From: Gammaproteobacteria bacterium
GTDB taxonomy: Bacteria; Pseudomonadota; Gammaproteobacteria; Natronospirales; REEB76
Direction: 5' to 3'
Assembly (NCBI GenBank): GCA_028864905.1
Contig: JAGWLP010000002.1
Span: forward strand, 1 to 53,573
DNA: 53,573 bases
The translations under genes were made by a program, and so were the position numbers. A model generated the notes under the pieces. That model ran no database searches, was not told where the DNA came from, and saw only the letters and a program-made list of their open reading frames with translations. Shown one piece after another: positions 4,986 to 53,573 of the stretch (the stretch's first letter is position 1; each line of letters begins with the position of its first letter).

Positions 4986-5792
4986 TCATTTTAACAGGAT
5001 GTTGAAAAAACGCCTGGCGTTGGCTGTGGTTTCATCGGCAACTTGCTTGCGGAGTTTAGCAACGCACTCCGCCACGGTCGCGCAGATATGTGCGAGGTAC
5101 ATCGGCTCGTTGCGGTGCGTGTGCGGCTTGGGATTGAGGTCGCGCGGCAGCAGATAAGGCGCGTCGGTTTCCAGCATCAGCCGGTCAGCGGGAATCAGCC
5201 TGACCAGTTCGCGCAGATGCCTGCCGCGGCGCTCGTCGCAGATCCAACCGGTGATACCGATGTGGCAATCGAGTTCCAGGTAGTCCCGCAGCTCCTGCTC
5301 GCCATCGGTGAAACAATGTACGACTGCGGCGGACAACCGTGGCCGCCAGCGCCGCAGAATCGCCGTGAAATCAGCATGCGCGTCGCGCTGGTGCAGGAAT
5401 ACCGGCTTGCCGGTTGTCGCGGCCAGTTTCAGTTGGGTTTCAAAAACCCGGCGTTGGTTGTCCTGCGGAGAAAAATTGCGGAAATAATCCAGTCCGCATT
5501 CACCTACGGCCACGACCTCGGGCGCGGCGAGCAGGGTGCGCAGTGCGGCCGGCGCGGCGGCATCAAATTCTTTGGCCTGGTGGGGATGCGTGCCGGCGGT
5601 GGCAAACAATGTGCCTGGCCATTGGCGACAGAGTTCCAGGGCTTTGCGGCTGTGCTCCAAATCACTGCCGGTGACGATGAATTGCGCCACACCGGCTGTT
5701 TGCGCGCGACGGATCACCGCTTCACGGTCGGCGTCAAAGCTGTCGTGGGTCAGATTGGCGCTGATGTCTATCAGTGCGTGGTGTGTGTTCAC
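4986..5792 (-). CDS. tatD: TatD-family metal-dependent DNase/hydrolase
   Basis: LIDISANLTHDSF...FIVTGSDLEHS...GECGLDYFRNFSP...FLHQRDAHADF...HCFTDG...ETDAPYL. I prefer the GTG at 5790-5792, which overlaps the mtfA stop as GTGA. The track ATG at 5825 would overlap mtfA by 37 nt. Confidence 0.85.
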   Translation of the reverse strand: MNTHHALIDISANLTHDSFDADREAVIRRAQTAGVAQFIVTGSDLEHSRKALELCRQWPGTLFATAGTHPHQAKEFDAAAPAALRTLLAAPEVVAVGECGLDYFRNFSPQDNQRRVFETQLKLAATTGKPVFLHQRDAHADFTAILRRWRPRLSAAVVHCFTDGEQELRDYLELDCHIGITGWICDERRGRHLRELVRLIPADRLMLETDAPYLLPRDLNPKPHTHRNEPMYLAHICATVAECVAKLRKQVADETTANARRFFNILLK

Positions 5793-6550
5793 AAGCTGCT
5801 GGGATCCTGACGGTAAAAGAGACACAGTTGCCGATAAAGCTCCGGCAGATGCGTGCGCAATATAACCGGCGTTTCAAAAAAAGCTTCACTCGCCACCGCG
5901 AAGAACTCGCCGGGGTTCTCGAGACCGTAAGGGTCGAGCACGGTGATCTCGCCCGCCTGCCATGCGCGTTGCAATGCGGCATAGGCTTGCTTGAATGCGC
6001 GCGTCCATTCGCCACGCCGCATGTCTGGGTGCAGGGGTGGAAAGCCGTTGGCTTCGCCGTTCAACATGTCGAGCTTGTGCGCGAATTCGTGGATCACCAC
6101 GTTGTGTCCGGGCGGCGTGCCGGCTTGCATGACCGATTCCCAGGACAGGATCAGCGGGCCTTGTTGCCAGGATTCGCCGGCCATGACGCGGTGGTCGTGG
6201 TGCACCACGCCGGCCGCATCCACAAACTGGCGATTGGGAATGAACAGGCCTGGATAGAGCACCACGCCATGCCAACCGCGATACCATTTGAGGCCGAGAT
6301 TCAGGATCGGAATGCAGGCATGCACGGCCAGCAGCACGCGCATGCCATCGTCGAGCCGCAATCCCTGTACCGGCTCCAGTGATTTTTCCGCGAGGAACAG
6401 CGTTGCCAGCACCCGCAGACGGGCCTGCGCGCTGGCGCTGAGGCGGCGCGCAGGAGCGCAATGGTCGAGCGCCTGCCGCCAGGCGCGCTCGCCGATGGGC
6501 CGACGTTTGAGAATGGAACGTTCACGCCATTGGCGGAGAAAGGTCAGCAT
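5789..6550 (-). CDS. mtfA: MtfA-like zinc peptidase (M90, glucose-regulated metallopeptidase)
   Basis: HEFAHKLD zinc motif with downstream GEFFAVASEAFFETP. Size (253 aa) and overall pattern match MtfA. Confidence 0.85.
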   Translation of the reverse strand: MLTFLRQWRERSILKRRPIGERAWRQALDHCAPARRLSASAQARLRVLATLFLAEKSLEPVQGLRLDDGMRVLLAVHACIPILNLGLKWYRGWHGVVLYPGLFIPNRQFVDAAGVVHHDHRVMAGESWQQGPLILSWESVMQAGTPPGHNVVIHEFAHKLDMLNGEANGFPPLHPDMRRGEWTRAFKQAYAALQRAWQAGEITVLDPYGLENPGEFFAVASEAFFETPVILRTHLPELYRQLCLFYRQDPSSL

Positions 6551-39936: not shown

Positions 39937-41970
39937 TCAGTGCAAGGTTCCGCCTGCGGAGCTGCGGGAGCGTACGGCTTTTACGTCGTTGGCGGTAACC
40001 GGCTTGCCCTGGTTGCCCCATGACGAGCGCTCATGGTTGATGATGTCGGCGATTTGCGCGTCATTGAGCACGCTGGCGAAGGGTGGCATTGGAGTTGGAT
40101 AAGTCCGACCGCCGATGTTGCGACCGTGTGCACCACGCAGAATCGTTTTGATCTGCTCCTCCGGATCCGGGTTCAGCACGACGGGGTCGTCCTTGAGTGG
40201 TGGAAACGCTCCCGGCAAACCCATGCCGGCGGGTTGATGGCAGGCGGCACAGTTGGCTGAGTAGAGTGAAGCACCTTGGGTTGCATCGTATTTGTAGGGA
40301 CCGGCAGGTTCGAGAGTAGCTGATGGAGCGCGGGCACCAGAATGCGCCGCCGTCACCGGTGAAGCCGCAGGCGCGCTCACTTGGGGTGACGGCGGGGCAG
40401 TACCGGGTGCCAGCACGTTAAAAACGCCTTGTGCGCCGATCATCGCGTGCGCCATATCGTGGTCCACAAAGGCGTATTTGCCCGGTTCCGGGATCACCAG
40501 ATCGAATATCGCGCCGGCGCCCGGACCCACGGTGTAGGTGGAAATGCCGCTCAAGGCGTGTGCAGCGTCGCCATCGGGATAAATTTTGTCGAACATCGCG
40601 CCGATTACGTGGAATGAACTCCACAGGTCCGGACCGGCGTCCACGAAATAAATGCGCACGCGTTCGCCGGCCGTGACCTGCAGAGGATGATCGCGGTACT
40701 GGAAGGCCGCGCCGTTGAAGACCACTTCGTCGGGGCGTTCCTGCAACATCTTCTCGAAATCCGGGCCCATCAAATGGCCGGAAACCTGCTGGGTGTACCA
40801 CTCGCTTTGCACGATCACGTAACTGTCGGCGGCCTTTGGCAGCGGCGTGACCGGATCCACGACGATGGCGCCGTACATGCCGTTGCCGATGTGCAGCAGC
40901 ACCGGCGGCGTGCCGCAGTGATACAGGAACACGCCGGGGGTGCTCGCCACGAACGAAAACTTGATGCTCTTGCCCGGATCCACGTCCACGTAATGCAGGC
41001 TGGGCGGAGTGATCGCGGCGTGAAAGTCAATCGAGTGCTGCATCGTGCCGTGGTTGGTGAAGGTCACGTTGGCCGTCTGGCCTTGGCGAACGTGGATGAC
41101 GGGGCCGGGAACCGTACCACCGTAAGTCCATGCCATATAGTCAACGCCGCTGGCGATGGCAACCTTGTCGTCGGTCGTCACCAAATCAACATTGACGCTG
41201 TTGCCGGTACCGACGAGCGGCGGCAGGCGCGCATCGCGCGTGGTGGAGATAGGCGTGCTCGAAGCGAGCACCAGCGGTGAAACCGCCGCCGCGGCCGCCG
41301 CAGGCGAGGGCGATTTGACGTTGAAGGCGCTGTGCAATCCAAGCACCAAGAGGACAAGCAACACCACGATCCCGGCCATGGCCGGGACCTGCACGCGCCA
41401 CGGCAGTGCCATGCGCACACGCGGGCGGGTCGTGTCGCGGCTCCACTCGGTAACCAGTTGCCATTTCGGCCAGCGACGTTCGATCAGGTAATCGAGGCTG
41501 TAAGGAATGAACCCGGCGCGGTAGTCGAGGCCGATCAAGGCCACGAAAATCAGCACGTAGCTGATTGCAGTACCCATGTTGGCCGCGCCTACCGTGTAGG
41601 GACCGCCGAAACCTTCGGCCGTGCTCCACACCGCCAGGCTGAACAGCGCCCCCAGCACGTACAGGGTTCGGCGCCCAAAACCAACCAGCAGCGCAAACGC
41701 CAGCACACTCTCGATGATGCGTGTGACCCAAATAAACAGACCGGCATTGGGCGTGACCACGGCAATCCACAGGTGGAACCAGCCGGCCGACCAACCCGGC
41801 TGTCCCTGGGCCGCGTTGTGCAAGTAGCCGACGTAGTGAAGCGCGAAGTCGGGCGTCCAGGTGAGCGCCGCACCCACCGCCCAAATGATGCCGAAGGCGA
41901 CGCGCAGCGCCGTAGTGGCTATGGCCGGCCAGGTTGCGACGAAGCGGTCGTGAGGATCTGTATCCGACAT
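39937..41970 (-). CDS. nirK: copper-containing nitrite reductase NirK with N-terminal polytopic membrane domain and C-terminal cytochrome c domain
   Basis: ATG at 41968-41970 (MSDTDPHD). About 220 aa of TM helices come first. The cupredoxin core has HSIDFH (T1/T2 Cu His plus catalytic Asp), YHCGTPPVLLHIGNGM (His-Cys...His...Met), SFHVIG and FVDHDMAH. The C-terminal domain carries CAACH. Confidence 0.85.
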   Translation of the reverse strand: MSDTDPHDRFVATWPAIATTALRVAFGIIWAVGAALTWTPDFALHYVGYLHNAAQGQPGWSAGWFHLWIAVVTPNAGLFIWVTRIIESVLAFALLVGFGRRTLYVLGALFSLAVWSTAEGFGGPYTVGAANMGTAISYVLIFVALIGLDYRAGFIPYSLDYLIERRWPKWQLVTEWSRDTTRPRVRMALPWRVQVPAMAGIVVLLVLLVLGLHSAFNVKSPSPAAAAAAVSPLVLASSTPISTTRDARLPPLVGTGNSVNVDLVTTDDKVAIASGVDYMAWTYGGTVPGPVIHVRQGQTANVTFTNHGTMQHSIDFHAAITPPSLHYVDVDPGKSIKFSFVASTPGVFLYHCGTPPVLLHIGNGMYGAIVVDPVTPLPKAADSYVIVQSEWYTQQVSGHLMGPDFEKMLQERPDEVVFNGAAFQYRDHPLQVTAGERVRIYFVDAGPDLWSSFHVIGAMFDKIYPDGDAAHALSGISTYTVGPGAGAIFDLVIPEPGKYAFVDHDMAHAMIGAQGVFNVLAPGTAPPSPQVSAPAASPVTAAHSGARAPSATLEPAGPYKYDATQGASLYSANCAACHQPAGMGLPGAFPPLKDDPVVLNPDPEEQIKTILRGAHGRNIGGRTYPTPMPPFASVLNDAQIADIINHERSSWGNQGKPVTANDVKAVRSRSSAGGTLH

Positions 41971-42220
41971 GAAAAATCTCTGATTTGAAGCTGCGTAGTT
42001 TATCCGCGGTGACCTTGGTAAGGCCTCTCCGGAGGCACGCACCTACCGAGGTCGACTGGCGCCAGCGATACGGTATGCACTCCGCGGGTGCCAGTAAATA
42101 GCCGTGGGCCGAGTCGCGCTCTCGCGCGGAACCCCGCACCTCCGCCGTGCGCATTGTTGACCGCACGGAGAATATCGTGATTCATTCGGCTGATGTTCCG
42201 GTTTTTGAAACCCCGGCGCG

Positions 42221-42234
42221 CTGATTTGGATCAA
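42221..42234. promoter_or_regulatory. FNR/Dnr-type box, 9/10 match (CTGAT-ttgg-ATCAA)
   Basis: Read directly from the sequence. It lies about 250 nt upstream of the nirK start in the nirK / 42440-operon divergent spacer. Confidence 0.5.
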
Positions 42235-42375: not shown

Positions 42376-42389
42376 TTGATATAGATCAA
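42376..42389. promoter_or_regulatory. FNR/Dnr-type box, perfect (TTGAT-atag-ATCAA)
   Basis: The palindrome centre is about 57 nt upstream of the ATG at 42440. This suits a class II (-41.5) activator site with a short leader that contains AAGGAG. Confidence 0.7.
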
Positions 42390-42439
42390 TGCGGTTCCCC
42401 GGCGTGACGCGGCAGACTCCCGATGCAAGGAGTGTTGAG

Positions 42440-42904
42440 ATGGCCGATGTTGCGGTTGCCCTGGTTGTGCATGTGCTGTCGGTGGTGTGGTGGATCGGGA
42501 GCCTGGCGTTCATCACCGCGGTGTTCCTGCCGTTGTTGCGCAAGGCGCAGCTCGGGGATGAACAGGCGGCCTTCCATGCCATTGAGAACCGCTTCGAGCC
42601 GCAGGCGCGCATCGCCGTGGTGTTGGTGGGCCTGTCCGGCATTTACCTGCTGTTCCGGCTGAACCTCTGGTCCGTGTTCCTGCAGGCCAGGTTCTGGTGG
42701 CTGGATGCCATGGCCCTGTACTGGCTGCTGTTCATGCTGCTGTTGTTCGTGCTCGGACCCACAGGCGTGCTGCGGCATGTCATGCGCCGCGGCGGCGATG
42801 AGATGGCCCGCTGGCGCCGCATGCAACGGGTACATCTGGTGTTGCTGGTGATTGCGCTGGTGATTATCGCCGGCGCGGTATCGGGCAGTCACGGCTTCGG
42901 ATGA
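42440..42904 (+). CDS. small 4-TM membrane protein, uncharacterised
   Basis: ATG at 42440 lies 7 nt after AAGGAG. It has four hydrophobic helices, and the first (HVLSVVWWIGSLAF) loosely resembles CopD/HemJ-type helices. Its stop overlaps the next start (ATGA). Confidence 0.6.
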   Translation: MADVAVALVVHVLSVVWWIGSLAFITAVFLPLLRKAQLGDEQAAFHAIENRFEPQARIAVVLVGLSGIYLLFRLNLWSVFLQARFWWLDAMALYWLLFMLLLFVLGPTGVLRHVMRRGGDEMARWRRMQRVHLVLLVIALVIIAGAVSGSHGFG

Positions 42905-43443
42905 GGTCCATGCTGAGTTTCGATCCCTTTGCCGTGCTGGCCGACGAGCACGCAGTGCTCACGCAGTTGTTCGCCCGCCACCAGGCTGCCTTGGTCACGC
43001 GCGCGTGGGCACGCGCTGCACGCCTGCTGGATTCCCACCGGAAACGGCTGGCCCAGCACATCGAACTGGAAGAGCATTATCTTTTGCCTTATTGCCCGCG
43101 CGAGAAGTTGCCGAATCAATGGCCGGCACGGGTTTATTCCGCGGAACATCAGCGCATTCAGGAGCTGGCCAGCAAGCTGAACCTGCGGTTTGCCAAGCTG
43201 CGCCGTCGCGGCGTCACCACCACGACCCTGATTGCCTTGCTCGACGAGGAAAAGACACTGAAACACATCCTGGGACATCACCATGCGCGGGAGGAGACGG
43301 CATTGTTTGTGAACTTGTCGCAGGCGTTGTCCGAGACGCAGCGCGATGAGCTTGCCCAGGCACTCAGGCACCCCCCGCATTGCAGGCCAATGGTGCCCGT
43401 TAGTGCACGTGCCGGCGCAACGCCTCGGTATCCAGGATCGTGA
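42901..43443 (+). CDS. hemerythrin-like (HHE cation-binding) domain protein
   Basis: Repeated H/E motifs (ADEHAVL, HIELEEHYLLPY, AEHQRIQEL, LGHHHAREE). The last 44 nt overlap the convergent regulator gene. Confidence 0.65.
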   Translation: MRSMLSFDPFAVLADEHAVLTQLFARHQAALVTRAWARAARLLDSHRKRLAQHIELEEHYLLPYCPREKLPNQWPARVYSAEHQRIQELASKLNLRFAKLRRRGVTTTTLIALLDEEKTLKHILGHHHAREETALFVNLSQALSETQRDELAQALRHPPHCRPMVPVSARAGATPRYPGS

Positions 43444-44086
43444 CCCGATCCTCGGAAATCTCGATCAAGCCCTCGTCATTGAGCGCGCGCAGGATACGCG
43501 ACAGAGTTTCCGGCGTCACCGCCACGTGTGCGGCAATCAGCATCTTGCGCGCCGGCAGGGTCACGCTGACCCGGCCGTGCTCGCCGCGCGGTACCAGGCC
43601 CAACAGGTAATGCACCACGCGGTAGCGGCTGTTTTCCAGCGTCAGCGCCTCGATCTCGTCCCAGTGCGCCTGGATGCGCTGAGTCATCTGCGCCATCACC
43701 GCCCGGCAGGTGGCAAACGACTCCTGCAAGATGTCGAGGAAAGCGCCGCATTCAAAGGCCACGAGTTCGCCGGCTTCGACCCCGGCGCCGTGCACCGGGT
43801 AGCGCGGCGTGTCCATGAACATCACGCTCTCGGCGAAAGTCTGCGGCGGGCGGATGAAGCGCATGATTTTTTCATGACCGTCCGGTGACAGCCGGTAAAG
43901 CTTGACGCTGCCCTGGCGCAGCAGAAAGAAGCTCGCCGCCTCGTCGCCATGGCTGAACAGGTGCTCGCCGGCAGAGAACGGGCGCAGCGAGGCGTGGGTG
44001 AACACGCGCATGCGCTGCGCGTCGCTCAGGGCCGAGAACAGGTAATGGTGGCGCAATTCGCGCGCCAATGTGCCGTCGGGTTCCAT
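43400..44086 (-). CDS. Crp/Fnr-family regulator, Dnr/NnrR type (no N-terminal Cys cluster)
   Basis: The internal ATG at 44084-44086 gives MEPDGTLARELRHHYLFSAL (228 aa). It has a cNMP-like beta-roll and a C-terminal HTH with VTPETLSRILRAL (the E--SR motif of TTGAT-recognising members). The FNR Cys ligands are absent. Confidence 0.85.
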   Translation of the reverse strand: MEPDGTLARELRHHYLFSALSDAQRMRVFTHASLRPFSAGEHLFSHGDEAASFFLLRQGSVKLYRLSPDGHEKIMRFIRPPQTFAESVMFMDTPRYPVHGAGVEAGELVAFECGAFLDILQESFATCRAVMAQMTQRIQAHWDEIEALTLENSRYRVVHYLLGLVPRGEHGRVSVTLPARKMLIAAHVAVTPETLSRILRALNDEGLIEISEDRVTILDTEALRRHVH

Positions 44087-45475: not shown

Positions 45476-46885
45476 ATGCAAGCAATGGTCACGTCTTCGT
45501 CGTCGGGGCTGACGGCGGCGGATGAAGGGGCGCTGCGTACAGTTTTCAACGTGTACACGCTGTGCGCGGCGCTGTGGCTGGTGTTTGCCACCTTCATCGG
45601 TATCGTGCTGGCGTTCAAGTTCGTGTATCCGGAGTTCTGGGCGCACGCGGGCTGGCTTACATTCGGGCGGCTGCGGCCGATCCATACCAACGATACCTTT
45701 TATGCCTGGGCGAGCATCGGGCTCGTGGGCCTGGCCTATTACATTGCGGCGCGCAGCTCGCGGGCGCGCCTGTACAGCGCCAAGCTCGCCTGGGTGGGGC
45801 TCGCGCTTTTCAACATTGCCGCCATTGCCGGCACCGTGACGCTGGATCTCGGCATCAACGACGGCACACTCGAATACCGCGAGTGGGTCTGGCCGATCCG
45901 CCTGGTGTTTCTGGCGGCGCTGGTGGTGACCGCGTGGAATCTCATCGCGACGGTGGCACACCGCAATACCAAGGACATCTATCTTTCCAATTGGTACACC
46001 ATCGGCGGGGTGCTGTGGACCTGCATCATTGCCATCGTGGCCATCATTCCCTGGTACCAGTACGGCCTCGGCCAAGTGGCGGTCTCGGGCTTTTTCATGC
46101 ACAACGCCGTCGGCCTGTGGTTCACGCCCATGGCACTCGGCATTCTGTATTACGCCATTCCCAAGCTCTTCAGCCGGCCGATTTACTCCTATGCGCTCGG
46201 TGTGTTCGCGTTCTGGACCAACCTGATTTTCTATCCGATCATTGGCTCGCACCATTTCCTGTTCAGTCCCTTGCCGTGGTGGCTGCAGACCATCGCCATC
46301 GTGTTTTCGGTGGCGATGCTGGTGCCGGTGTGGGCGGGCAGCGCGAATTACCTGCTCACCATGCGCGGGCGTCCGCAGCGCCTGTACCGCTCACCAGCGA
46401 TGTTCGTGCTCGTGGGCGTGCTCGGCTATCTCATCGGCTCGAGTCAGGGCACGGCCGAGGCCTTCCGCTCGCTGCAGGAAGTCTGGCATCTCACCAACTT
46501 CACGGTCGGTCATTCACACCTCACCATGTACGGATTCATCACCTTCGTCATCTGGGGCGGGGTGTACGGGCTCCTGCCGCGCATCACCGGCAAGCAGGCC
46601 AACAATCTGCTCATGGGCATCCATTTCTGGTGGGCCACGATTGGCATGATCATTTATGTGCTGGCGCTCTCGATCGGCGGCACCATTCAGGGACTCGATT
46701 GGATACACGGCCTGCCGTTCATTGATTCGGTGGTAAACATGGCGCCGTACTGGCTGTGGCGCGCCATCGGCGGCGGCATGATGTTCCTCAGCCATCTGCT
46801 GTTCCTGTGGAACGTCTGGTTCATGACTTATGGGCGGAAGCAACCCAAGGCCTTGGCGGTGACGGCAACGGAGGCCGCGGCATGA
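45476..46885 (+). CDS. ccoN: cbb3-type (C-family) heme-copper oxidase subunit I, CcoN-like
   Basis: ATG at 45476 after GGGGAG. Motifs are FFMHNAVGLWFTP, FYPIIGSHHF (HH CuB ligands with Tyr six residues upstream) and TVGHSHLTMYGF. Confidence 0.85.
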   Translation: MQAMVTSSSSGLTAADEGALRTVFNVYTLCAALWLVFATFIGIVLAFKFVYPEFWAHAGWLTFGRLRPIHTNDTFYAWASIGLVGLAYYIAARSSRARLYSAKLAWVGLALFNIAAIAGTVTLDLGINDGTLEYREWVWPIRLVFLAALVVTAWNLIATVAHRNTKDIYLSNWYTIGGVLWTCIIAIVAIIPWYQYGLGQVAVSGFFMHNAVGLWFTPMALGILYYAIPKLFSRPIYSYALGVFAFWTNLIFYPIIGSHHFLFSPLPWWLQTIAIVFSVAMLVPVWAGSANYLLTMRGRPQRLYRSPAMFVLVGVLGYLIGSSQGTAEAFRSLQEVWHLTNFTVGHSHLTMYGFITFVIWGGVYGLLPRITGKQANNLLMGIHFWWATIGMIIYVLALSIGGTIQGLDWIHGLPFIDSVVNMAPYWLWRAIGGGMMFLSHLLFLWNVWFMTYGRKQPKALAVTATEAAA

Positions 46886-47859
46886 AGGCGCTCATCCTGA
46901 TCGCCGGCGGCTCGACGCTGGTGTACGCGATACTCGCGGTACTGATGGGCGTGCTGCCGGGCATCGAGTTGTCGAAGACTCCGCCTGGCCCGGGCGTGGA
47001 ATCCCTGACCCCGCTCGCAGCCAAAGGCCGCGCTGTGTATGTCGCCAACGGATGCAGCTATTGTCACACCCAGCAGGTGCGGCCGCTGCCGGAGGATCGC
47101 GTGTTCGGCCGGCCGACCGCAGCCGGCGACCTGGTTTACCAGACGCCGGAACTCCTCGGTTCGGAACGCAATGGCCCGGATCTTTCGAATATCGGCAATC
47201 GCCAGCCGAGCAAAGTCTGGCAATACATGCATCTGTACGATCCGCGCTCGGTGCAGCCGCTGTCCATCATGCCGGACTTCAGTTTTCTGTTTCGCGTGGT
47301 GGCTGAGGCGCCGCCGGGCGTTACACCGGTGGCGCTGCCGCCCGCCTACGCGCCGAAGCACGGCGTGGTGATTCCGACACAGAAAGCGGTAGCGCTGGTG
47401 GCCTACCTCCTGTCACTCAAGCAGCCGCCGATTCCCGGTTATGTACCACCGGCTGTGCCGATGCCCAGTGCCGTGCCTTCCACACCCGCCGCGGGCGGTG
47501 CGCCGGCAGCCGCGCCGGCGTTTGATGCAACCGAGGGCGCGCAACTTTTCTCACAAAACTGCGCGGTCTGCCATCAGGCGAACGGCGAGGGCATCACGGG
47601 TGCATTTCCGCCGCTCAAGGGCAACGCCGCAGTGCTGAACGACGACCCCACACAGCAGCTCCACGTGATACTCGAAGGCCTTTCGAATACCAACGTCGGT
47701 GGTACCGTCTATCCGGGTGCCATGCCGCCGTTCAAGACGGTGCTGAGTGACAGCCAGATCGCCAATATCGTTGATCACGAGCGCACCTCCTGGGGCAATA
47801 ATGCGAAGCTGGTGACGCCGGCCGAGGTCGCGACGGAACGCGCAAAGTTGAAGCACTAG
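46882..47859 (+). CDS. ccoO: CcoO-like monoheme subunit fused to a C-terminal monoheme cytochrome c domain
   Basis: The ATG overlaps the ccoN stop (ATGA). It has an N-terminal TM, then GRAVYVANGCSYCHTQQVRP and ERNGPDLSNIGNR...W...HLYDPRSV (CcoO signature). A Pro/Ala-rich linker leads to a second heme site, CAVCH. Confidence 0.8.
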   Translation: MKALILIAGGSTLVYAILAVLMGVLPGIELSKTPPGPGVESLTPLAAKGRAVYVANGCSYCHTQQVRPLPEDRVFGRPTAAGDLVYQTPELLGSERNGPDLSNIGNRQPSKVWQYMHLYDPRSVQPLSIMPDFSFLFRVVAEAPPGVTPVALPPAYAPKHGVVIPTQKAVALVAYLLSLKQPPIPGYVPPAVPMPSAVPSTPAAGGAPAAAPAFDATEGAQLFSQNCAVCHQANGEGITGAFPPLKGNAAVLNDDPTQQLHVILEGLSNTNVGGTVYPGAMPPFKTVLSDSQIANIVDHERTSWGNNAKLVTPAEVATERAKLKH

Positions 47860-48588: not shown

Positions 48589-49749
48589 CTATCCTAGGCG
48601 CGGCGCGAACATCAGCGGCAGAAAGCGCAGGAAATAAATCGCGAAGGCCAGTGCCCAGAGCACGCTGGCGACCGGCAGCAGCCCGGGAGTGTTGATCAGG
48701 CGCAGTACCGCCGCCACGCTCACCAGCACGAAGGCCGCGGCCATGAACGGGCCGGCGGCCATCGCCCGTCCGGTGTGACCGAGCGCTATGCGCGTCATCA
48801 TGCCGATGGAGAGCGAGCCGAGCGCGCCTACGGTGATCGCGTGCAACGCGGTGATTTCGGGAAGTGCGGAGGAGAGCAGTGCGGCGCCGCGCAGCGCCAG
48901 TCCCGCCGCCAGCCACAGATAACCCAAGTGCAGTACCCACAGCATCGGCTCGCGCCAGGCTTTCCATGGCTGCCATAACCACCAGCGCAGCAGCACCAGC
49001 AGCGCGACCGCGAGCGACACCGTGGCGAGCAGCGCGGATTCCGGCCACACGATGTCGAGCAGTACCAGCAGCGCCGCGCCGCCGTTCACGCTCCAGTCGA
49101 GCCAGCGGTAACGCTGGACGGTCGCGTGGCTCAGGCGCCGCGCGGTGAAAAACGGAATCACGCGCCCGCCGATACTGAGCATCAGCACCGTGAACAGGTC
49201 GATGACCCAGTACAGTACGCTGCGTTCCGCTACGTGGATGACGCCAGTGACGCTCAGATGAAACGCCACGTCCGCAAGCGTGAATGCCGACAGCAGCCCG
49301 ATCACGAAATAATTGCGGCGGTTGCGGCTTTTGATGATCGGCCGCGCCACCATGAGCAGCAGCAGGCCAAAGTAGCCGCAGTCCAGGAACGCCGTAAGCG
49401 CATAGGGTACACGTGCCGGCAGCAGGAACAGCACGCGCGCGGCCAGCCACACCGCCAGCAGCAGCACGAGTGAGGCCGGCGTGAAAGTGGCAAGCTTGGT
49501 CCATTCGGCCACGGCCGTGAGCAGGAATCCCGCCACCAGCGCACCCGCAAAACCGAACAGCATTTCGTGGCCATGCCACGCGAGCGGCGGCAGGGAACTG
49601 GCGGGCAGCAGGCCCAAGTGCAGGAACAGCGCCCAGGTAAAAATGCCGAGTGAAGCCGCGAGCGCCGCACACAGGAACAGCGGCCGGAACGGTTGCTGCA
49701 AGATGGGCGGCGCGTTCACGCTGCGTGCGGCGGGGGCGGGGATACTCAT
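48589..49749 (-). CDS. nnrS: NnrS-family heme/copper membrane protein
   Basis: About 12 TM segments. Motifs PFRPLFL, WHGHEMLFGF, GGRVIPFF and HAITVGALGSL are typical of NnrS. The start overlaps the pncB stop (ATGA). Confidence 0.85.
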   Translation of the reverse strand: MSIPAPAARSVNAPPILQQPFRPLFLCAALAASLGIFTWALFLHLGLLPASSLPPLAWHGHEMLFGFAGALVAGFLLTAVAEWTKLATFTPASLVLLLAVWLAARVLFLLPARVPYALTAFLDCGYFGLLLLMVARPIIKSRNRRNYFVIGLLSAFTLADVAFHLSVTGVIHVAERSVLYWVIDLFTVLMLSIGGRVIPFFTARRLSHATVQRYRWLDWSVNGGAALLVLLDIVWPESALLATVSLAVALLVLLRWWLWQPWKAWREPMLWVLHLGYLWLAAGLALRGAALLSSALPEITALHAITVGALGSLSIGMMTRIALGHTGRAMAAGPFMAAAFVLVSVAAVLRLINTPGLLPVASVLWALAFAIYFLRFLPLMFAPRLG

Positions 49750-50906
49750 ACGGCGAAAACCTTCCTGAGATAGGCGAGATAACCCGGGTCAGTGCACAGG
49801 GTCTTGGCGGGATCGTCGCTGATCTTGGCCACGGCCTGGCCGTTGCAGCGCGTCATCTTGATGATCATGTCGGGCGGGGCGAATCCCATATCGTTGCTGA
49901 GGTGCGTGCCGATCCCGAAGCCCAGGCGCACGCGGCCGTGAAAGTGTTCGAAGATGCGCAGCGCCTTGGGGAAGTCCAGTGCGTCGGTGAACACCAGCGT
50001 CTTCGTGAGTGGGTCAACGCGCAGCGTGTGGTAATGCTCCACCAAGCTCTCGCCCCACGTAATGGGATCGCCGGAGTCCTGGCGCACGCCGTCGAACAGC
50101 TTGCAGAAGTACAGGTCGAAATCCCGCAGGAAAGCCGCCAGTCCGATCACGTCGCTGAGCGCGATGCCGAGATCCCCGCGGTACTCCTGTTCCCAGCTTT
50201 CGAGTGCGAAGCGTTGACTGTCAACGAGCCGCGGTCCCAGAGCCTGGCAGGCCTGCAGGAACTCGTGACCCATGGTGCCAATGGGAGTCAGACCCAGCTC
50301 TTTGGCCAGCAGCACGTTGCTGGTACCGGCGAGATTCCCGGGCAGCGCTGCGGCCAAGCGCTGCACCACGCTGCGCTGCCAGTCGCGCGCATAGCGCCGA
50401 CGGGTGCCGAACTCGCTGAAGCGGAATGCCGCATGCCCGGGATGCGCGCGCAGCAGCGCGATTTTTGCCTCCAGGCGTGCCCGGCCTTCCTGCAGGGTAT
50501 CGGCATTGCGCCGGGATTCGGCGTACACCTCGCTCAGGATCGCGAGCACCGGCACCTCGAACAGGATAGTGTGCAGCCAGGGGCCGCGGATCACGATTTC
50601 CAGGGCACCGTTCTCGACGCTTACGCTGACGTGGTCCGGCTGCAACTGGAAGATGCGCAGGATGTCCACGAAGTCCTTTTTCATGTAGCGCAGGTTGCGC
50701 AGGTAGGCGAGCTCCTGCGGCGTGAACCGCAGGCGGCAGAGCGCGGCGATTTCGTCACGGATGCGTTCAACGTGTGCGGCCAGCGTGTCGGGCTCATTGC
50801 GGCAGCGGAAGCGGTATTCGACTTCGGCGGCCGGGAAGCGGTGCAGCACCGCCTGCATCATGGTGAGCTTGTAGAGATCGGTGTCGAGCAGCGATTCGAT
50901 GATCAT
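49746..50906 (-). CDS. pncB: nicotinate phosphoribosyltransferase
   Basis: MIIESLLDTDLYKLTMMQAVLH N-terminus with EFGTRRR and GTSNVLLA motifs. Confidence 0.9.
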   Translation of the reverse strand: MIIESLLDTDLYKLTMMQAVLHRFPAAEVEYRFRCRNEPDTLAAHVERIRDEIAALCRLRFTPQELAYLRNLRYMKKDFVDILRIFQLQPDHVSVSVENGALEIVIRGPWLHTILFEVPVLAILSEVYAESRRNADTLQEGRARLEAKIALLRAHPGHAAFRFSEFGTRRRYARDWQRSVVQRLAAALPGNLAGTSNVLLAKELGLTPIGTMGHEFLQACQALGPRLVDSQRFALESWEQEYRGDLGIALSDVIGLAAFLRDFDLYFCKLFDGVRQDSGDPITWGESLVEHYHTLRVDPLTKTLVFTDALDFPKALRIFEHFHGRVRLGFGIGTHLSNDMGFAPPDMIIKMTRCNGQAVAKISDDPAKTLCTDPGYLAYLRKVFAV

Positions 50907-50932
50907 GTGTGCATCGTGCCGGGGAGAGCAGC

Positions 50933-50946
50933 TTGATGCAAATCAA
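50933..50946. promoter_or_regulatory. FNR/Dnr-type box, perfect (TTGAT-gcaa-ATCAA)
   Basis: It sits in the divergent spacer between pncB (ATG 50906) and the FmdE-like gene (ATG 51023). The spacing fits a -41.5 site for the plus-strand gene better than for pncB. Confidence 0.65.
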
Positions 50947-51022
50947 TGCGCACGGCGCTGCCGTGGCCTACAAGGAGCTTCCCACAGGTTGATGTGCCCC
51001 GGTGCGGGCAGGAGTCGGGCCG

Positions 51023-51634
51023 ATGATGCGTTATCCCGAATTTTTCGACGCCGCGCCGGTGATCACGATGCGCGATCCGCTCGCCGAGTTTCTCGGCGCC
51101 ATGCAGGACGGCCTCATGGAATATCGTTACGCCAACGTGGTCGCGCTGGCCGGACATTCCTGCCCCACGGTCGCGGCGGCGTTCCTCATGACGCGTGCCG
51201 CGCTCAACGCGCTCTATCCGGACGAGGTGCCGCTGCGCGGTGACATCCGGGTTGCGGTCAGCGGCGCGCAATACCAGGGCACGGTCGGCGTCACGGCCAA
51301 CGTGGCCAGCCTGATTACCGGCGCGGCCGGAGACGGAGGATTCAAGGGCATCGGCGGCCGTTTCAAACGCTGCGAGCTGCTGGCCTTCGATGCGGAGCTG
51401 AACGCGGAAATGAGTTTCACGCGTGCCGACGGCGGCGCGTGCGTGGAGGTGTCCGCCGACTTGTCGCCGGTGCCCATGGATGCGCGCGTGCGGGAATTGC
51501 TGCCGCTGTGTCTGGGTGGAAGCGCCGATCCATCGGAGATCGGCGAATTCCGCCGCCTGTGGCAGGAGCGCGTGCGCCGTCTGCTGCTGGATCATAAGGA
51601 CGATCCGGCGGTGATCCGCGTCCGCATGCATTGA
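51023..51634 (+). CDS. FmdE-like domain protein (tentative)
   Basis: ATG at 51023 or 51026. The motif LAGHSCPTVAAAF resembles the FmdE H-x-C-P motif, and it is followed by a beta-rich region. The assignment is by eye only. Confidence 0.5.
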   Translation: MMRYPEFFDAAPVITMRDPLAEFLGAMQDGLMEYRYANVVALAGHSCPTVAAAFLMTRAALNALYPDEVPLRGDIRVAVSGAQYQGTVGVTANVASLITGAAGDGGFKGIGGRFKRCELLAFDAELNAEMSFTRADGGACVEVSADLSPVPMDARVRELLPLCLGGSADPSEIGEFRRLWQERVRRLLLDHKDDPAVIRVRMH

Positions 51635-51843
51635 GACCGGCGTTGCCGTGCTCCCGCCCGCGCGCAGCGGCGCATGCGCAGGTTTGTCTTGCGGGCCGTG
51701 CCTGAGCCCGGGTGCGCCCTGCGCGGTCACAAACTCCATAGCGCGGCGCGCCAGTACATTCACGCCATCGTCCAGCATGGCGCCGGCCTCCTCGGGCAAA
51801 TGTGCAACGCGCACCAGCCTAGGCGCAGTGCGGGTTGCGGGCC

Positions 51844-51857
51844 TTGATGCACATCAA
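51844..51857. promoter_or_regulatory. FNR/Dnr-type box, perfect (TTGAT-gcac-ATCAA)
   Basis: The centre is about 66 nt upstream of the Rieske ATG. A TAAAGT -10-like hexamer at 51879-51884 gives near-ideal class II spacing. Confidence 0.7.
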
Positions 51858-51916
51858 GGCAGGTGCGCGCAGCGGCGCTTAAAGTGCCGGGCAACCGCAG
51901 CACAGGAGGGCTTGGC

Positions 51917-52234
51917 ATGTCACAATGGATCGCAGCCGCACAGCTCGGCGAAATTCCCGACCACAAATCCAAAGTCATCACGCTCAACGGTTCCGATGTC
52001 GCCGTGTTCAACCTGAGCGGCGAGTATTTTGCCATCGAAGACATCTGCACACATGACGGCGGCGACATCTCGGGCGGCTGGGTGGAAGGCGAGCATGCGG
52101 TGTGCCCGCGGCATCTCGCGGAATTCTCCATCCGTACCGGCGCGGCGCTCAAGGCGCCGGCCTACGAGGGCGTGCACAGCTTTCCGGTGCGCGTGCGCGG
52201 TGCAGTCATTGAAGTCTGCGATGACCGCGAGTGA
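51917..52234 (+). CDS. soluble Rieske [2Fe-2S] ferredoxin
   Basis: ATG at 51917 after AGGAGGG. The motif C-T-H-x17-C-P-R-H (CTHDGGDISGGWVEGEHAVCPRH) is present in a 105 aa product with no TM. Confidence 0.8.
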   Translation: MSQWIAAAQLGEIPDHKSKVITLNGSDVAVFNLSGEYFAIEDICTHDGGDISGGWVEGEHAVCPRHLAEFSIRTGAALKAPAYEGVHSFPVRVRGAVIEVCDDRE

Positions 52235-52255
52235 GGCGTGCGGGGACGGCGAGTC

Positions 52256-53573
52256 ATGGTAAGCAACCGTCTGTCGCGCTGGACCCTGCTGTTCTTTGCC
52301 TGTGCATTGGTGAATTTCCTGGCTGCGCAGGGCGTGATTCTTTCCGGTGCAAGCTGGCCGATGCAGCCGGTATCCGCGCCCGGCACGCTGGTGGCCGTGC
52401 ACCTGCTCACCATCGGCTGGCTGCTGCTGCTGATGCTGGGCGCGTTGTTCCAGTTCATCCCGGTAATTACATCGAATGTGTTGCCGAGCCAGCACCTGGA
52501 GCTGGCAACGTTGGGCGCCATCGAAGTCGGTTTGCTGCTCATGATCTGCGGATTCATCGGCATGGGTTTGGGCGCGGCGCTGATCGTCCGCTGTCTGCCG
52601 GTCGGTGGCGCTCTGGTCATCGCCGGTGTGCTGCTGGCCTGTTACGACCTCGGCGTGCCGCTCCTCAAGGCACGGCCGTTGACCTTGCCCGGCCGCATGG
52701 CGCTCACCGGCCTGGTGTTTCTGCTCGTCACCATCACGCTCGGGCTGTTGTTCGCACTCACCATCAGCGTCCCGGCGCTGTCCGGGCGTTTAGGTGTGCT
52801 GCTGGCCGATGGCGTCGGCTTGCATGCGCTCGCGGGCCTGGGTGGCTGGTTCACGCTCACGGCCATGGGGGTGACTTACAAGCTCGTGCCCATGTTCACG
52901 CTCGCGCCCGAGGAGCGCGGCTTGGCCGGTGAGCTGGTGCATTACCTCGCGGCCGCGGGGTTTGCCTTGGCGCTGATTTTCGGCCTACTGCACATCTGGA
53001 TACCGGTATGCACCCTGCAGGGCGTGGAATATACCGGATATCTGCTGGTGGTGGTGGGCATCGGCATTTATCTCTGGGACATGGCGCGCATCTATCGCAC
53101 GCGCAGACGCGCGGTGCTTGAGCTGCACAACAAGGCGGCGGTAGGCGCATTCGTGCTGCTCGGAGCCTGCGTGGTGATGGCGCTGGTGCTGGCCGGATTG
53201 GGACGGTCGGCCGACGATGCAGCGGTCTTCGTGTTCCTGGTGGTGTTCGGCTGGCTGAGCGGGTTGGGGCTCACGCAGCTTTACAAGATTGTGCCGTTTC
53301 TGGCCTGGCTTGGCCGCTTCGGCCAGAAACTCGGGCGCGGGCCGGTGCCGCGCGTGCAGGATCTCGTGGATGAAGCCCGCGGCTATCCGTGGTTCATCAT
53401 TTATTTCATCGGCGTATCGCTGGCGGTACTCGCGGCCTTCAGCGACGAGTTTTATGTTTTCCGTGCCGGTATCGGACTGGGCGTGATCGCCACGCTCGGA
53501 TTGATGCTCGAGTCCTGGCGCGCTTGGCGCGGCTATTACGCGGCGCGCAAGCCACAGGTTGCGCCGAAGCTGC
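52256..53573 (+). CDS. uncharacterised polytopic (at least 12 TM) membrane protein, 3-prime partial
   Basis: It is absent from the ORF track because it has no stop inside the window. I translated from ATG 52256 to the window end and found no stop (MVSNRLSRWTLLFFACALVNFLAAQG...). It has at least 12 hydrophobic helices and a repeated motif: VHLLTIGW-x12-FQFIPV, LHALAGLGGW-x10-YKLVPMF and FGWLSGLGLTQLYKIVPF. Codon usage is GC3-rich, as in neighbouring genes. Confidence 0.65.
   Translation, partial: MVSNRLSRWTLLFFACALVNFLAAQGVILSGASWPMQPVSAPGTLVAVHLLTIGWLLLLMLGALFQFIPVITSNVLPSQHLELATLGAIEVGLLLMICGFIGMGLGAALIVRCLPVGGALVIAGVLLACYDLGVPLLKARPLTLPGRMALTGLVFLLVTITLGLLFALTISVPALSGRLGVLLADGVGLHALAGLGGWFTLTAMGVTYKLVPMFTLAPEERGLAGELVHYLAAAGFALALIFGLLHIWIPVCTLQGVEYTGYLLVVVGIGIYLWDMARIYRTRRRAVLELHNKAAVGAFVLLGACVVMALVLAGLGRSADDAAVFVFLVVFGWLSGLGLTQLYKIVPFLAWLGRFGQKLGRGPVPRVQDLVDEARGYPWFIIYFIGVSLAVLAAFSDEFYVFRAGIGLGVIATLGLMLESWRAWRGYYAARKPQVAPKL

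Follow-up and report, generated by a model that had tools for sequence, protein, structure and literature searches.

A divergent heme-copper-oxidase-superfamily membrane protein heads a conserved module with DUF2249 and DUF59 genes in a gammaproteobacterial denitrification island

In the present study we analysed a stretch of 53,573 nucleotides, called the window hereafter, from a Gammaproteobacteria bacterium of the Natronospirales (REEB76; assembly GCA_028864905.1, contig JAGWLP010000002.1), and in particular a gene at its right end, 52256..53573 on the forward strand, which is cut by the window end. An earlier reading of the sequence (the original prediction) had found there a protein with 12 transmembrane (TM) helices and a repeated histidine motif. 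It could not assign this protein to a family, and it supposed that, with the soluble Rieske ferredoxin encoded just upstream, the protein might form an undescribed electron-transfer or nitric oxide (NO)-detoxifying unit. We observed that the gene clearly encodes a divergent member of the heme-copper oxidase (HCO)/NO reductase (NOR) superfamily, made of three four-helix units and carrying two invariant histidines, H49 (TM2) and H190 (TM6), and that it opens a module of closely packed genes, being the first of its conserved members.

Fold and histidines of the 12-TM protein

The open reading frame begins with an ATG at 52256 and, by direct reading, continues for 439 codons without any stop through the last base of the window. 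Its G+C content by codon position is 0.65/0.46/0.84, a pattern also found in the two upstream genes, and since a value of 0.84 at the third position is typical for genes in a sequence of 62% G+C, we consider it to be a real gene. The overlapping frame 52231..52932 has values of 0.83/0.66/0.47, and R, A, G and P account for 56% of the residues of its product; it is an off-frame artefact, as was originally proposed. With the 52256 product we retrieved 940 homologues at E<=1e-3, the first of which, from a gammaproteobacterial metagenome-assembled genome, is 94% identical and 476 residues long, so that the window lacks only about 37 C-terminal residues. The family comprises at least 2149 clusters at 50% identity, as determined by a profile search of 1.84 billion representatives, and it is present in at least 519 species genomes. 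It is indeed uncharacterised, since all the names returned by the sources are "hypothetical protein" and neither Pfam nor NCBIfam gave any match for the window protein, even at E<=1.

A model of the 94%-identical full-length protein was built with AlphaFold2 from an alignment of 51 sequences (pLDDT 89.1, pTM 0.87). It contains 12 long helices, the number predicted, all inside the part encoded in the window; the residues absent from the window form a low-confidence tail. When this model was compared with the PDB by Foldseek, each of the 27 matches at E<1e-3 was an HCO subunit I or NorB, and the same was true for all 50 matches listed. The best one was CcoN of a cbb3 oxidase (3mk7, E 2e-5), followed by cNOR (3o0r and 4xyd) and then by aa3 and bo3 enzymes, with TM-scores of 0.6-0.68 along the whole length.

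Profile comparisons led to the same superfamily. When the 93 representatives left after 50% clustering of the family sample, which were also used for the histidine columns below, were aligned by hhalign with 8 COX1 sequences from the fetched loci, the probability was 98.3% (E 2e-13). The hidden Markov model (HMM) of the family matches the cbb3-like COX1 of the window itself with an E-value of 1e-10, and distant family members touch the Pfam COX1 profile, one of them (P0240) above its threshold with 45.7 bits for a cut-off of 34.8. The window protein itself did not reach the gathering threshold of Pfam COX1 (PF00115) and gave no match to it even at E<=1. In addition, a search of the PDB sequences with the family profile gave no match even at E<=10, the fold being visible by structure comparison only, and a first, shallow alignment gave hhalign probabilities below 1% when compared with the one COX1 and the one NnrS sequence that the window encodes. 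The link with COX1 thus becomes significant only when the 93-sequence alignment is compared with a COX1 alignment. With the Foldseek and hhalign results, the membrane protein, which had been regarded as unassignable, takes its place within the superfamily of heme-copper oxidases. We also considered membership of the NnrS family and rejected it: no match to Pfam NnrS (PF05940) was detected even at E<=1, and hhalign against an alignment of 16 NnrS sequences gave a probability of only 4%, versus 98% for COX1.

The repeated motif of the original prediction is real, but it exists in three copies and not in two, and the two histidines do not occupy equivalent positions. The repeat units correspond to residues 8-140, 141-286 and 287-432 and match each other with pairwise probabilities of 97.3, 97.0 and 96.8% (E 3e-11 to 3e-10). 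Their common motif is G-W-x10-(Q/K)-x2-P, with Q/K eleven residues past G-W and the proline at +14. As judged from these comparisons, the three four-helix units correspond to the three-unit construction of the oxidase fold.

A catalytic COX1 subunit (PF00115) has six characteristic histidines, one on TM2, one on TM6, the HH pair of TM7 and the HxH of TM10, and only two of these columns are kept in the family. H49 is present in 92 of the 93 representatives and H190 in all of them, and there is no other conserved histidine column; the residues aligned with the HxH of TM10 are F325 and F327, and no histidine of the TM7 region is conserved. The absence of the HH and H-x-H signatures, which had been noted from the start, is therefore confirmed, but it does not imply that the protein is unrelated to the oxidases; it marks a non-catalytic HCO homologue. 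The two invariant histidines of TM2 and TM6 are compatible with one bis-His cofactor, as had been suggested. Each of them lies within two turns of the periplasmic end of its helix, and the positive-inside rule gives an N-in topology, as in oxidases.

The register of these histidines differs from that of the oxidases. In the ungapped alignment of the units with each other, H49 lies 6 residues and H190 8 residues ahead of the conserved tryptophan, and this 2-residue offset also appears as the 2-residue gaps that hhalign needs to fit histidine and tryptophan to COX1 at the same time. With the same Trp/Pro anchor, the histidines of the cbb3-type COX1 of the window, like those of canonical HCOs, are at -8 (TM2), -6 (TM6), and -8 and -6 (TM10). 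In cbb3 and aa3 oxidases, the low-spin heme is bound by the TM2 histidine and the second TM10 histidine, the high-spin heme by the first TM10 histidine, and CuB has the TM6 histidine as a ligand. From these ligand assignments and the register, it follows that each metal site of an oxidase pairs the -8 histidine of one unit with the -6 histidine of the preceding unit. The 12-TM family displays the remaining combination, -6 on TM2 and -8 on TM6. From this register and the pairing rule, we infer that H49 and H190 point into a third pseudo-symmetric pocket, empty in known oxidases, and that one bis-His heme would be held there. A protein with just this six-coordinate heme and without a binuclear centre could not be an oxidase or an NO reductase.

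In summary, the 12-TM protein shares with CcoN and NorB (COX1, PF00115) the fold over the full length (TM 0.6-0.68), the N-in topology, an aromatic residue followed by a proline 14 residues later and a profile probability of 98%, but it lacks the HH of TM7, the HxH of TM10 and a partner of the CcoO/NorC type, and its TM2 and TM6 histidines are shifted by 2 residues. With NnrS (PF05940) it has in common the 12 TM helices, the type of regulon, the genomic island and, probably, the superfamily, but similarity at the family level was not detected by Pfam or hhalign. Moreover, NnrS has an H-x-H on TM2, and DUF2249 and DUF59 genes do not follow its gene.

A module with DUF2249 and DUF59 genes

We compared 83 non-redundant loci taken from GTDB species genomes, metagenome contigs and the window. 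Neighbours within 7 kb were counted in the 42 loci with 5 kb or more of flanking sequence on each side; as these counts come from phmmer searches with single-sequence seeds, they are lower bounds. A DUF2249 gene was found downstream of the membrane gene in 74 of 76 loci and a DUF59 gene in 72 of 73. Three contigs encoding the 94%-identical protein are syntenic with the window and extend past its edge. In the closest full-length locus, the membrane gene is followed by a gene for a double-DUF2249 (TusA-like) protein, a DUF59/FeS_assembly_P gene annotated "metal-sulfur cluster assembly factor" and a DUF2249 gene. The double-DUF2249 gene overlaps the membrane gene by 14 nt, and the genes of the module overlap by 4-14 nt, with overlapping start and stop codons. 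The 12-TM gene is thus the first conserved gene of the module, and in the genome studied here its DUF2249 and DUF59 partners sit just beyond the right edge of the window, where the expected order is double-DUF2249, DUF59, DUF2249, as on contig DATEHU010000026.1 of assembly GCA_035279405.1. For the DUF59 partner, matches were obtained to TM0487 and TTHB138, two DUF59 proteins from structural genomics. Within 7 kb of the membrane gene we also found genes for Crp/Fnr regulators (21/42 loci), NnrS (13/42), COX1 (11/42), hemerythrin (9/42) and NirK (4/42); a Crp/Fnr gene lies at most 1.5 kb upstream in 16 of 68 loci.

The gene is also present in well-annotated genomes, and a tblastn search of plasmids found it on 134 records. 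On pSymA of Sinorhizobium meliloti the module has norCBQD-hemN on one side and nnrS-nirK on the other, and the gene itself, with DUF2249 genes as its neighbours, bears the annotation "hypothetical protein"; a literature search with the likely locus tags, SMa1255-1262, found no papers. In Paracoccus alcaliphilus it is followed by genes for a DUF2249 protein, a "metal-sulfur cluster assembly factor", a Crp/Fnr regulator and pseudoazurin. In the haloarchaeon Haloprofundus it stands beside nirK and three DUF2249 genes, and no DUF59 gene is annotated there. In another haloarchaeon, Haloferax mediterranei, denitrifying conditions raise the expression of DUF2249 genes that neighbour nirK and nor, with log2 fold changes of 3.2-8.7 (PMC11218638). 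Either E6P09_00780 or E6P09_00790 of that organism may be the family member, and we make no claim that the membrane gene itself is induced.

The arrangement in Thermus links the family with DrpA and DrpB. In T. thermophilus SG0.5JP17-16, narGHJI and a transporter gene are followed, in this order, by drpA (DUF2249), drpB (DUF1858 and two DUF2249 domains) and genes for a 144-residue protein, a protoglobin, a 383-residue protein and a DUF59 protein. The 383-residue protein matches the family profile from end to end (E 3e-75), with both histidines in the same registers, and T. parvatiensis shows the same arrangement. In a drpAB double mutant, the NarG protein is made but its activity is about one tenth, and when both drpA and drpB are lost the expression of nar and dnr no longer depends on nitrate (PMC6282519). 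DrpB is associated with the membrane, and the path of the signal across the membrane is stated to be unknown (PMC6282519, PMC7694296). The membrane genes downstream of drpAB are not mentioned in either article (PMC6282519, PMC7694296). The two systems thus have DUF2249 partners in common, and a family member and a DUF59 gene belong to the drpAB gene string, but DrpAB has been studied as a bicistronic regulatory operon, and in our case the DUF2249 genes lie outside the window.

The 144-residue Thermus protein deserves a separate mention. Its gene (5467-5901 of the locus from plasmid pTHTHE1601 of strain SG0.5JP17-16, L091), between drpB and the protoglobin gene, encodes about four TM helices, with an H-x-H in the -8/-6 register. 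The protein matches unit two of the family (E 1e-13) and, with a weak score, positions 344-405 of COX1. This four-helix, single-unit oxidase-like protein could form a trimer with heme sites at its interfaces.

The original prediction had considered that the unit could be undescribed; in our view, its kind has already been described computationally. In 2014 Pei, Li, Kinch and Grishin (Protein Sci 23:1220) reportedly defined HCO-homology (HCOH) families, among them 12-helix proteins of three units with two conserved histidines proposed to bind one heme, and they are said to have noted a link between HCOH and denitrification genes. The features of HCOH, namely homology to HCO, two conserved histidines and a link with DUF2249 and denitrification, are all found in the 12-TM family. 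The 12-TM protein would therefore be a new member of a kind described by computation and never studied by experiment. PMC11218638, with reference to Pei et al. 2014, also states that DUF2249 is linked with the oxidase superfamily.

Neighbouring genes and regulatory boxes

Just upstream of the membrane gene, 51917..52234 (+) encodes a soluble Rieske [2Fe-2S] ferredoxin of 105 residues without signal peptide, which passes the Pfam Rieske (PF00355) threshold with 62.6 bits for a cut-off of 20.3 and has the ligands C44-x-H46-x16-C63-x2-H66. As expected from the original prediction, the two genes are likely co-transcribed, being separated by 21 nt with one FNR/Dnr-type box upstream of both. The idea that the Rieske and 12-TM pair is a conserved unit did not hold. 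The Rieske gene is adjacent in 9 of the 83 loci, is found within 4.5 kb in 18 and is absent from 65; it is directly upstream in 9 loci, convergent and about 1.3 kb downstream in 8, and further downstream in one. All these loci come from closer gamma- and betaproteobacterial relatives. Since the linkage is kept in two different gene orders, the association seems to be real but lineage-specific, which suggests that the Rieske gene is an add-on of this lineage. Without a signal peptide, the Rieske protein must be cytoplasmic, and the direct transfer of electrons from Rieske to heme, as once imagined, is topologically awkward, as both histidines are at the periplasmic ends of their helices.

The box upstream of the Rieske-HCOH operon, TTGATGCACATCAA at 51844..51857, is a perfect FNR/Dnr-type TTGAT-N4-ATCAA palindrome, as was first noticed. 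It is followed, after 22 nt, by the candidate -10 hexamer TAAAGT (51880..51885, +), which places the centre of the box at about -41.5, the class II geometry required for an FNR-type promoter, with no -35. A second perfect box, TTGATGCAAATCAA at 50933..50946, lies in the divergent intergenic region between the pncB-like gene and an FmdE-like gene, which thus has its own box, as predicted; a weak -10 candidate, TACAAG, is found at 50969-50974, 22 nt downstream. With a distance of just 27 nt to the start codon of pncB, it most likely acts on the FmdE-like gene. A scan of the region for the sigma-70 consensus detected no -35/-10 pair, in keeping with a promoter that depends on an activator; a single terminator-like hairpin, a weak one, was found at 51662, and Rfam gave no match in 50000-53573. 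In the whole window there are five boxes with at most one mismatch (four perfect and one with a single mismatch) for 0.95 expected, and none of 100 shuffles reached five.

A box of the 51844 type is found at the same relative position in loci L001, L007, L008, L013, L014, L015 and L020. Its place moves with the first gene of the operon: it lies before the Rieske gene when there is one and otherwise 40-84 nt upstream of the membrane gene. FNR boxes with at most one mismatch occur in 17 of 77 loci, the background density being 0.085 per kb. Among the other loci, alphaproteobacterial for the most part (L032-L086), TTG-N8-CAA sites are enriched 3.5-fold (0.72 vs 0.20 per kb). The enriched palindromes include the NnrR-type TTGCG-N4-CGCAA, the consensus of Rodionov et al. 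(PMC1274295), and TTGAC-N4-GTCAA variants. These motifs suggest that different Crp/Fnr subfamilies may control the module in different lineages. A candidate activator of the boxes in the window is the Crp/Fnr-family regulator encoded by 43400..44086 (-), which is Dnr/NnrR-like since the N-terminal cysteine cluster is absent; it would be their cognate regulator.

The FmdE-like gene, 51023..51634 (+), encodes a protein of 203 residues with an invariant G-H45-S-C47-P-T motif and C163. Its assignment is valid at the level of the fold: in a Foldseek search with an AlphaFold2 model (pLDDT 90.5), the top four matches are FmdE-like (2glz, 2gvi, 3d00; E 2e-4 to 4e-3), and the protein remains below the threshold of Pfam FmdE (PF02663), with 14.8 bits for 22.9. 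Among its 2826 homologues a few are named FmdE family, and some of the close ones carry PF02663. The invariant H45, C47 and C163 suggest a putative metal or thiol site. Its gene had been counted as part of the module, but it stands beside the membrane gene in only 4 of the 42 loci and recurs near other denitrification genes. Homologues were found next to NnrS in Sulfuricystis, next to a cbb3-like oxidase, a Crp/Fnr regulator and suf genes in Ramlibacter, and next to ApbE/NosL/NosDFY/NosR (L087, L088 and L089). We conclude that this gene, which has its own box, is linked to denitrification independently of the module, and its family of 200-residue FmdE-fold proteins seems to represent a separate denitrification accessory gene that had escaped notice.

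Other features of the island were also observed. NnrS is encoded 2.5 kb from the 12-TM gene, as reported earlier, by 48589-49749 (-); this gene shares 4 nt with the end of 49746-50906 (-), a pncB-like gene for a nicotinate phosphoribosyltransferase. This NAD-salvage gene appears to be co-transcribed with nnrS, and the pair is kept in the syntenic loci L001 and L007. Region 45476-47859 (+) encodes a divergent C-family oxidase subunit I (250 bits with the ccoN model, whose equivalog cut-off is 583), and then a CcoO to which a cytochrome c is fused at the C-terminal side; in L001, a syntenic locus, this pair comes after a cupredoxin gene. Because it belongs to an island with Dnr boxes, the pair could represent an oxidase variant that is NO-reductase-like or of very high affinity, and not an ordinary cbb3 oxidase. 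A perfect FNR/Dnr box at 42376-42389 directly precedes the gene of a small CopD/DUF4149-like membrane protein (42389-42904, +; sub-threshold in Pfam), the end of which overlaps the start of a hemerythrin-domain gene (42901-43443, +). This CopD-like frame was also considered as a single-unit relative of the 12-TM protein and was rejected, as the family and unit HMMs give no match to it. Finally, 39937-42042 (-) encodes a copper nitrite reductase with multicopper oxidase domains and a C-terminal cytochrome c domain, that is, a fused NirK-cytochrome c, and there is a box with one mismatch at 42221 in its upstream region.

Proposed role of the family

With modest confidence, we lean towards the 12-TM protein being the membrane subunit, with a single heme, of an accessory system for NO/denitrification that also includes DUF2249 and DUF59 proteins and would protect, mature or report on metal centres. 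Regulators of the Dnr/NnrR type would switch the system on when denitrification yields NO. The membrane subunit would carry the heme without oxidase or NOR catalysis, and it would be in complex with the cytoplasmic DUF2249 and DUF59 proteins. The complex might protect, repair or mature the iron-sulfur (Fe-S) or other metal centres of denitrification enzymes, or report the redox or NO status. By analogy, its functional kin would be NnrS, RIC/YtfE and DrpA/DrpB. According to work on Vibrio cholerae, NnrS is said to limit the damage done by NO to iron centres, and this role is probably the best functional analogy for the one proposed here. In the gammaproteobacterial lineage studied here, the cytoplasmic Rieske ferredoxin may have been recruited as an extra redox partner, and the upstream FmdE-fold gene would be a separate member of the same regulon.

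Several observations weigh against this proposal. The proposed meeting of H49 and H190 in one pocket derives only from the register of the sequence and the pseudo-symmetry, and the pairing rule would be satisfied by chance in one of four histidine arrangements. Moreover, the gapped hhalign alignment places H49 on the low-spin-heme histidine of TM2 and H190 on the CuB histidine of TM6, two residues that share no cofactor in real oxidases. Denitrification genes adjoin the module in many loci and not in all (single-sequence seeds found NirK in 4/42 and COX1 in 11/42). A cytoplasmic Rieske protein facing histidines near the periplasm leaves its role in the module unexplained. The DUF2249 proteins are the only partners to have been tested genetically, and in Thermus only, where the authors read DrpA and DrpB as nitrate sensors or regulators and not as repair factors (PMC6282519, PMC7694296).

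The latter interpretation leads to a serious rival, although we consider it rather unlikely, in which the family would be purely regulatory: its heme would sense NO, O2 or redox changes on the periplasmic side and signal to DUF2249 proteins of the DrpA/DrpB type, which would modulate Dnr/NnrR-type regulators. The presence of the Thermus family member in the same gene string as drpA-drpB speaks for it, as do the membrane association of DrpB with its explicitly unknown signal path (PMC6282519, PMC7694296) and the Crp/Fnr genes adjoining the module in many loci, including Paracoccus (within 1.5 kb upstream in 16/68). In the 12-TM protein, a cytoplasmic loop between TM10 and TM11 (GRGPVPRVQDL) and an Arg-rich loop between TM8 and TM9 are also conserved, in agreement with such a function. 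Pure signalling would leave unexplained the constant presence of the DUF59 Fe-S assembly factor, and the Thermus double mutant also shows a maturation defect. The accessory system preferred here would include reporting as one of its functions.

The original prediction itself, that the Rieske protein feeds electrons to a heme of the membrane protein in a novel NO-detoxifying or NO-reducing enzyme or electron-transfer unit, now seems quite improbable to us. The 21-nt spacing behind a single Dnr box, the linkage in two gene orders over 18 loci, the NorB/CcoN fold and the position within a nirK/nnrS/cbb3-like island all agree with it; but four of the six canonical ligands are gone in the whole family, so that there is no binuclear site, the Rieske gene is missing from 65 of 83 loci when those of DUF2249 and DUF59 are nearly universal, and the Rieske protein has no export signal to reach histidines at periplasmic helix ends. 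In the least likely rival, to which we give very little credit, the protein would be a paralogue of NnrS, or else a cofactor-free transporter or scaffold, and its conserved histidines would have a structural role. NnrS, encoded 2.5 kb away, does have 12 TM helices, and hhalign yields a weak, co-linear alignment in which H49 coincides with the second histidine of its H-G-H-E motif, but this has to be set against the lack of any Pfam NnrS match at E<=1 and the hhalign probability of 4%, compared with 98% for COX1. No transporter is present among the 27 Foldseek matches at E<=1e-3, and the two histidines are the only invariant polar ligand-type residues across the 2149 clusters, which argues against a mere scaffold.

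We also propose, as a possible but doubtful extension of the accessory-system reading, that the family is the missing membrane part of a system of the DrpA/DrpB type (DUF2249), which is conserved across rhizobia, gammaproteobacteria, haloarchaea and Thermus, with a heme in the third pocket, vacant in all oxidases and NO reductases of known structure. The family is, at least, a candidate answer to the questions of how DrpA and DrpB of Thermus communicate across the membrane and of what DUF2249 proteins do in denitrification. What may be new is the shifted histidine register that implies a third pocket, the near-obligate DUF59 partner, the recruitment of the Rieske protein and the adjacency to drpAB in Thermus. 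The window cuts the operon, and the informative partners stand just outside it.

These findings overturn nothing, and their interest is moderate, but the gene sits in denitrification islands of tractable organisms, namely S. meliloti (pSymA), Rhizobium, Paracoccus, Thermus thermophilus and haloarchaea, in which DUF2249 proteins and stripped-down relatives of the oxidases can be tested. The family also lends itself to testing how metal sites are spread over the three repeated units that make up the oxidase fold. If the extended reading is true, the family would be a surviving example of the design "one unit interface, one metal site" behind the catalytic heme-copper enzymes, and a new heme-based device coupling the NO or redox state at the membrane to the maintenance of Fe-S and metal centres or to Dnr/NnrR control.

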